Of a stretch of DNA of 64,000 nt, positions 46,505-46,599 are shown piece by piece. Each line of letters starts with the position of its first letter. Within the stretch, counting starts at the first letter, position 1. The notes beneath the pieces are model-generated. The model worked only from the letters and a program-made list of their open reading frames with translations. It was not told where the DNA came from and did not search any database. Position numbers and translations under genes: made by a program. Source of the stretch: Escherichia coli (GTDB taxonomy: Bacteria > Pseudomonadota > Gammaproteobacteria > Enterobacterales > Enterobacteriaceae); NCBI RefSeq assembly GCF_003334765.1, contig NZ_QOWT01000008.1. One strand, given 5' to 3'.

Positions 46505-46599
46505 TTTGCGTCTGAACAAACCGCCGCCGCGAAAAAACACGTAAAATAGCGCTCAACAATGCCACGGATTGCGTGGCATTATTATTTTCAGGAGGAACA

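Follow-up and report, generated by a model that had tools for sequence, protein, structure and literature searches.

In Escherichia coli, the ampC promoter lies inside the frdD coding sequence, with a leader of about 16 nt before the hairpin; in ompA mRNA, a 5' stem-loop near the triphosphate end could slow the entry of RppH and RNase E, and the classic protection by 5' hairpins described in the ompA literature requires a single strand of no more than about 4 nt. In the account given in PMC6045580 of the work of Grundstrom and Jaurin (1982) and Jaurin et al. (1981), the frd terminator is the ampC attenuator, the ampC promoter being located upstream of it. The same source describes a comparable arrangement for nlpD1 and penA of Burkholderia pseudomallei, whereby the terminator of the upstream gene is the attenuator of the downstream gene. 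Here we analyze the sequence between yfeY and yfeX of E. coli, in which a hairpin with a T-rich tail directly precedes the ribosome-binding site of yfeX. The hairpin and the U-tract are probably a leaky Rho-independent terminator of the yfeY-containing transcription unit that is shared with the leader of the yfeX transcript made from P1, the main promoter of this gene.

The window, i.e. the whole stretch of 64,000 nucleotides that was analyzed, carries amiA (minus strand), ypeA-yfeZ-yfeY-yfeX (plus strand) and yfeW (minus strand), in this order, according to the open reading frames and the RefSeq annotation. Of the two genes that flank the hairpin, yfeY (45929..46504, plus strand) encodes an RpoE-regulated lipoprotein, and yfeX (46600..47499, plus strand) encodes a DyP-type porphyrinogen peroxidase; the elements between them that are described below are all read on the plus strand. 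The segment 46470-46610 is the same as in MG1655, without differences, and the locus is E. coli K-12 DNA; a window position p corresponds to position 2597145 - p on the minus strand of NC_000913.3, which places the yfeX ATG (46600) at 2550545. The mechanical list of open reading frames opens yfeX at a GTG within the 3' arm of the hairpin (46573-47499, 308 aa). Both the annotation and conservation place the start at the ATG (46600) that follows AGGAGG, and not at the GTG at 46573.

The 126-bp interval that contains the hairpin is single-copy and was found in all 5,426 complete E. coli genomes, with at least 99% identity in 4,880 of them, and is therefore not a dispersed repeat. In 49 of the 5,426 genomes, no match spanned at least 80% of the 126 nt. 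One of these genomes, that of strain 405 (NZ_CM132948.1), was inspected and was found to carry IS200C (2588-3296 of the extracted locus, L082) directly after the hairpin tail ...GGCATTCTTATT, where the insertion splits the yfeX ribosome-binding site from P1 and the terminator-like hairpin; another copy of IS200C lies downstream of yfeX in the same strain. Between yfeX and yfeW, REP/BIME-type repeats are located at 47560-47730, with matches to the Rfam families naRNA4 and ES036 that remain below the threshold, and these repeats account for the approximately 38 matching places per genome that were obtained with a 1.9-kb query.

The sequence-only reading of this DNA had described an 8-bp stem immediately upstream of the yfeX ribosome-binding site. 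The hairpin is real and is slightly longer than claimed: the arms ATGCCACG (46559-46566) and CGTGGCAT (46572-46579) enclose the loop GATTG (46567-46571), and A46558 and T46580 form a ninth pair, so that the complete element spans 46558..46580. It begins 54 nt past the yfeY stop codon and is followed by the interrupted U-tract AUUAUUUUC (46581..46589), read directly from the sequence, i.e. the tail ATTATTTTC that occupies 46581-46589; in K-12, six of the eight nucleotides after the stem are T, with two A residues interrupting the tract. The Shine-Dalgarno sequence AGGAGG (46590..46595) comes next, in the arrangement AGGAGG-N4-ATG. The distance of about 3 nt to GGAGG that had been given for the tract is fair, the last T being 2 nt from GGAGG, and the end of the stem is 10 nt from AGGAGG.

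With a 9-bp stem and a 5-nt loop, the hairpin falls within the limits that are applied to intrinsic terminators (stem of 5-14 bp, loop of 3-8 nt), and in a scan of 3.1 kb for the consensus pattern it was the top terminator-like site (9 pairs, 5 of them G-C). The predicted folding energy of the 31-nt RNA 46555-46585 is -14.3 kcal/mol, compared to -4.7 +/- 2.2 kcal/mol for dinucleotide shuffles (z = -4.3), and none of the 200 shuffles was as stable.

Published data place RNA 3' ends at this site in vivo. In the Term-seq analysis of Adams 2021 (PMC7815308, supplementary files 1 and 3), a 3' end was mapped to 2550560(-) in LB at OD 0.4, with a mean of 30,332 reads, and a 3' end at 2550561(-) was recorded under a different growth condition, with a mean of 41,034 reads; these ends are not assignable to one promoter, i.e. 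to the upstream promoters or to P1. In the window, these positions are U46585 and A46584 (46584..46585), both inside the U-tract and separated from the end of the 9-bp stem by 5 and 4 nt, respectively. The end at 2550560(-) was classed as "orphan", precedes the start of yfeX by 15 nt and received an intrinsic terminator score of 10.86, where values of at least 3.0 suggest intrinsic termination; its Rho score was 0.76, and it lies outside the significant Rho termination regions detected with bicyclomycin (PMC7815308). Thus, a stable G+C-rich stem-loop, a U-rich tract, 3' ends formed in vivo and independence of Rho, the features by which intrinsic terminators are recognized, are all found at this site, and the possibility, considered in the sequence-only reading, that the hairpin terminates yfeY is borne out to this extent. 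In SMRT-Cappable-seq (PMC6131387), both ypeA-yfeZ-yfeY and ypeA-yfeZ-yfeY-yfeX transcripts were detected, each starting at 2552167, and therefore part of the transcription from upstream ends ahead of yfeX and part continues into it, so that the read-through that had been envisaged does occur. There is no high-confidence termination site at the hairpin in Supplementary Data 1 of that study (no entry among 25505xx or 25506xx). In the direct RNA-seq coverage tabulated in PMC7815308, the 800 nt upstream scored 121 and the downstream sequence 88 (73%), so that yfeX RNA is nearly as abundant as yfeY RNA; a drop of this size, taken alone, is not evidence of strong termination. In part, the 3' end could also reflect exonuclease trimming back to the stable hairpin.

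The sequence-only reading had further argued that, if the hairpin ends yfeY transcription, essentially no room is left for a yfeX promoter. This argument fails, given that two transcription start sites of yfeX have been mapped by two independent methods. In Kim 2012 (PMC3415461; 5' RACE sequencing of primary RNA), starts were found at 2548612(-), with 17 reads and a 5' UTR of 45 nt, and at 2548577(-), with 8 reads and a 5' UTR of 10 nt; these coordinates refer to U00096.2 and become 2550590 and 2550555 in U00096.3 when 1978 bp are added. The operons consisting of yfeX alone in Supplementary Data 2 of the SMRT-Cappable-seq study start at 2550590 and 2550555 (PMC6131387), so that the two data sets agree to the nucleotide for both sites. 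The first, TSS1 (A46555), leaves 3 unpaired nt before the stem, so that the main yfeX transcript carries the hairpin within its 5' UTR, as had been suggested alternatively. The second, TSS2 (A46590), is the first base of AGGAGG; a start site downstream of the hairpin had been named beforehand as an observation that would speak against the attenuator or leader interpretation, and one is mapped there. The apparent dilemma is resolved because the promoter elements overlap the terminator rather than being squeezed between the terminator and the ribosome-binding site.

P1 has the -10 box TAAAAT (46542..46547) at positions -13 to -8, 8 nt upstream of TSS1, and no recognizable -35 element. For TSS2, the spacing leaves one plausible -10 element, the candidate extended -10 TGgCATTAT of P2 (46574..46582), with the hexamer at -13 to -8 and TG one base upstream; as read from the sequence, this element would lie within the 3' arm of the hairpin. 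Position A46581 is polymorphic, being C in other Escherichia loci (L001, L003-L005 and L082), where the hexamer reads CATTCT. Two other promoter readings of the arms and flanks were considered by eye and rejected: a sigma54 promoter (TGGCAC-N5-TTGC), for which the spacing is off by one and the match in K-12 is poor, and a sigma32 promoter (CTTGAAA/CCCCATnT), which does not fit, in addition to which no literature linking yfeX to RpoH was found.

Upstream of the -10 box of P1, which has no -35 element, there is a conserved box, TTGCGTCTGAACAA (46506-46519), that agrees with the FNR consensus, TTGAT-N4-ATCAA, in 7 of 10 positions and has its center 42.5 nt upstream of TSS1. The box is found at the same distance from the -10 element in most genera, and 47 of 80 sequences, which are not independent of each other, score at least 7, compared to 1.3% of random positions. 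Since yfeX has been reported as anaerobically induced, P1 is a possible candidate for a class II FNR promoter.

We also asked whether the hairpin governs translation. The stem ends 10 nt before AGGAGG, and this spacing is kept in many genera, as would be expected if the hairpin occluded or positioned the ribosome-binding site. However, in minimum free energy and centroid folds of 96-141 nt, the hairpin stands alone and its arms never pair with the Shine-Dalgarno sequence or the AUG; the Shine-Dalgarno sequence is at most involved in a weak local helix of 4 bp; this helix is independent of the hairpin and forms in the TSS2 transcript as well. Occlusion of the ribosome-binding site, the other possibility raised from the sequence, thus finds no counterpart in the predicted structures, and control of yfeX translation by the hairpin is extremely improbable.

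A scan with one genome per species yielded 80 loci from approximately 25 genera of Enterobacteriaceae, with YfeX identities of 81-100%. One of these loci (L038) is titled Chryseobacterium sp. but has an Enterobacter-like yfeZ-yfeY-yfeX (YfeX 91% identical), and is probably contamination; one metagenome-assembled genome named "Citrobacter sp." contributed two copies (L002 and L014), one of them identical to that of E. coli, which suggests a mixed bin. A YfeX representative that appeared to be 70% identical (P0124) was discarded, its loci (L083-L086, Logan assemblies) being C-to-T converted, bisulfite-like E. coli contigs. In all 79 loci with upstream DNA, yfeY precedes yfeX (L006 begins 12 nt before yfeX). 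Among the best 120 matches at the level of 90% clusters, all with at least 79% identity, no YfeX orthologue outside the yfeY-yfeX synteny was found; a homologue with 50% identity has an unrelated upstream region and no such hairpin. As yfeY and yfeX are always adjacent in these genomes, synteny is unable to tell which of the two genes the hairpin serves.

In the 73 distinct upstream sequences, a common layout was observed, consisting of the -10 box, the hairpin, the T-rich tail, AGGAGG and ATG. The -10 box is TAnAAT in nearly all of them (TAAAAT, TACAAT, TATAAT or TAGAAT) and is separated by 10-15 nt from the hairpin, the tail is T-rich (6-7 T of 8) in most genera, and AGGAGG is invariant. Within the hairpin, the core GCCAC/GTGGC is more than 90% conserved in sequence, the loop is free in both sequence and length (3-6 nt), and compensatory changes are found at four stem positions. 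The loop-closing pair is G-C, A-U (Klebsiella/Raoultella), C-G (L073) or G-U; a compensatory change from A-U to G-C is seen in L075 and L080; and in Buttiauxella, the stem has changed from U-A to C-G and from G-C to A-U. When covariation was counted on the gap-free alignment of both arms, there were 16 double-sided changes compared to 7.8 +/- 2.2 in shuffles (0 of 500 shuffles), and the covariation score was 0.216 compared to 0.163 in shuffles (3 of 500); paired cells made up 79% of the total, compared to 24-45% when the 3' partner was slid. Strong conservation of the core limits the covariation to a modest level.

These patterns bear on the possibility that the inverted repeat is a DNA operator, bound by a dimeric transcription factor over the yfeX start sites. 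The conservation of the GCCAC/GTGGC core and the location of the repeat, which covers +4 to +26 relative to P1 as well as the -10 region of P2, a typical position for a repressor, would be compatible with such an operator. However, the spacer is 3 to 6 nt long and lacks sequence conservation, the changes in the arms are complementary (G-C to A-U or C-G), so that pairing is preserved and not a half-site, an RNA 3' end is located shortly downstream of the repeat, and no known motif was recognized. Thus, the alignment supports an RNA structure over DNA half-sites at a fixed spacing, and we consider an operator highly improbable.

In the Klebsiella/Raoultella clade, the stem is shortened (CCACA/TGTGG), with folding energies of -6 to -8 kcal/mol, and the tail GTATCATTTC is poor in T; the loci with a short stem are L036, L039, L046, L047, L049, L053, L055, L057, L063 and L073. 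To judge from these sequences, the terminator of the clade may be weak, lost or decaying, or replaced by another promoter arrangement. The tail GTATCATTTC also includes a TATCAT box of its own, and no Klebsiella start site for the yfeX orthologue was found in the literature searched.

Retention of the hairpin in this clade, with most of the T-tract gone, is what might be expected if the hairpin had been selected as a 5' stem-loop of the ompA type that stabilizes yfeX mRNA, the ends at 46584/5 being sites where exonucleases stall. The 3 unpaired nt between TSS1 and the stem, which are within the limit of about 4 nt, and the fact that the hairpin stays beside the yfeX ribosome-binding site where the intergenic region is longer (L057) point in the same direction. 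[quoted passage not shown] Stabilization as the selected function therefore appears unlikely, and a leaky terminator that is shared with the P1 leader remains the reading that we prefer.

Whether read-through into yfeX is regulated, i.e. set by growth rate, anaerobiosis, a protein or a small RNA, was considered next to the published data. The terminator stands in the leader of a gene with reported anaerobic induction, the 3' end moves by 1 nt and differs in abundance between the two Term-seq conditions, and for the analogous ampC attenuator, growth-rate-dependent antitermination is described in PMC6045580. However, the P1 RNA has 3 nt before the stem, which leaves no room for an antiterminator, and in folds of longer RNA from upstream, the terminator is intact and no competing structure is formed. 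An Rfam scan at E <= 10 gave no match in 46500-46600, and the list of open reading frames contains no leader ORF in the yfeX leader, so that a riboswitch or a classical attenuator is unlikely. With respect to small RNAs, a paper citing Gogol 2011 states that RybB and MicA both repress yfeX, which may perhaps be a slip for yfeK. In RNAduplex, with random segments drawn from the window for comparison, the energies for the RybB and MicA seeds were -14.7 and -12.1 kcal/mol; these values did not surpass those of 11% and 80% of the random segments, respectively, and the RybB site is buried in the hairpin. Regulated attenuation is, accordingly, very unlikely. The description of the element as attenuator-like, made from the sequence, holds in the constitutive sense of frd/ampC and does not extend to an antiterminator, a leader peptide or an Rfam family, none of which was found.

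Taken together, the data suggest the following scheme. Upstream transcripts (ypeA-yfeZ-yfeY, including those of yfeY driven by sigmaE) would form the 9-bp hairpin, and most of them would be released in the interrupted U-tract at U46585/A46584, whereas a fraction would read into yfeX. The main promoter P1 is situated downstream of the stop codon of yfeY and ahead of the hairpin, and as its transcripts begin 3 nt before the stem, the hairpin also occupies +4 to +26 of the 45-nt yfeX leader. Some P1 transcripts are expected to end at approximately +31 as a short hairpin RNA, which may add to the high Term-seq count; those that pass would keep a 5'-proximal stem-loop and a free Shine-Dalgarno sequence, and the stem-loop, being 3 nt from the triphosphate end, may slow the entry of RppH and RNase E and decay that depends on the 5' end. 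Transcripts from TSS2, with their 10-nt leader, would escape the terminator altogether. As a net result, the promoters of yfeX itself would determine its output, with no more than weak coupling to the induction of yfeY by envelope stress. It is conceivable, and in our judgment quite doubtful, that the terminator is a control point, such that the fraction of P1 transcripts passing +31 varies with growth rate or anaerobiosis, and/or that the 31-nt RNA is functional. If so, P2, which is formed by the terminator's own 3' arm, would serve as a bypass, and the locus would comprise a conserved three-way switch within 50 bp.

The proposed scheme bears on the place of the locus in the sigmaE regulon. 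Just upstream of the yfeY ribosome-binding site, the sequence GGCACTT-N16-TCCAA (45870-45897) resembles the sigmaE consensus, GGAACTT-N16-TCnAA, and accords with the annotation of the yfeY product as RpoE-regulated. RegulonDB lists yfeY-yfeX as a single sigmaE operon (column in the data of PMC6131387). Upon sigmaE induction, yfeY increased 3.3-fold in a study in which yfeX was not scored, and two earlier studies listed yfeX as responsive to sigmaE (PMC2731931). These data fit a leaky terminator between the two genes: sigmaE would raise yfeY but yfeX inconsistently because yfeX has starts of its own and a terminator stands between them. The curated operon should be corrected to the extent that yfeX has two start sites of its own and is parted from yfeY by a conserved, probable terminator.

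Among known systems, the yfeX locus is closest to frd/ampC. In both cases, the terminator of the upstream unit is located between the promoter and the start codon of the downstream gene; TSS1 of yfeX is upstream of the yfeY terminator in two data sets, and upstream transcripts stop before yfeX. By analogy with ampC, the same element would end one transcript and attenuate the other, the one started at P1. The distance from the mapped 3' end to the start of the downstream gene is 16 nt for frdD and ampC, compared to 15-16 nt for yfeX (PMC7815308), and neither system has an antiterminator structure. The two differ in that P1 of yfeX lies in the intergenic region, its start preceding the stem by 3 nt, and in that yfeX has a second start site beyond the terminator; attenuator-up mutants and growth-rate effects are known for ampC, whereas none are known for yfeX. 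In the case of nlpD1/penA, the promoter arises by mutation in resistant isolates, as described in PMC6045580, whereas the yfeX promoter is ancestral and conserved in the family. The yfeX site is listed among the Term-seq 3' ends in 5' UTRs as "orphan, upstream ORF"; the characterized members of that set (PMC7815308) have riboswitches, upstream ORFs, small RNA control or sponge small RNAs, none of which was found for yfeX. The resemblance to the ompA leader consists in a stable hairpin that is no more than 3 nt away from the 5' triphosphate of the P1 RNA; in contrast to ompA, the yfeX hairpin is followed by a U-tract and probably acts as a terminator. The individual data points are already present in published supplementary tables, where they are not interpreted, and the element is otherwise an ordinary intergenic terminator, neatly overlapped with a leader. 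As such, it offers a compact natural test case for the behavior of a terminator within 30 nt of a start site. What sets yfeX apart from the precedents is the conservation of the whole layout across a bacterial family, and the locus would join frd/ampC as a second case of this design, conserved family-wide, whereby a single hairpin ends one transcription unit and is carried in the leader of the unit that follows.
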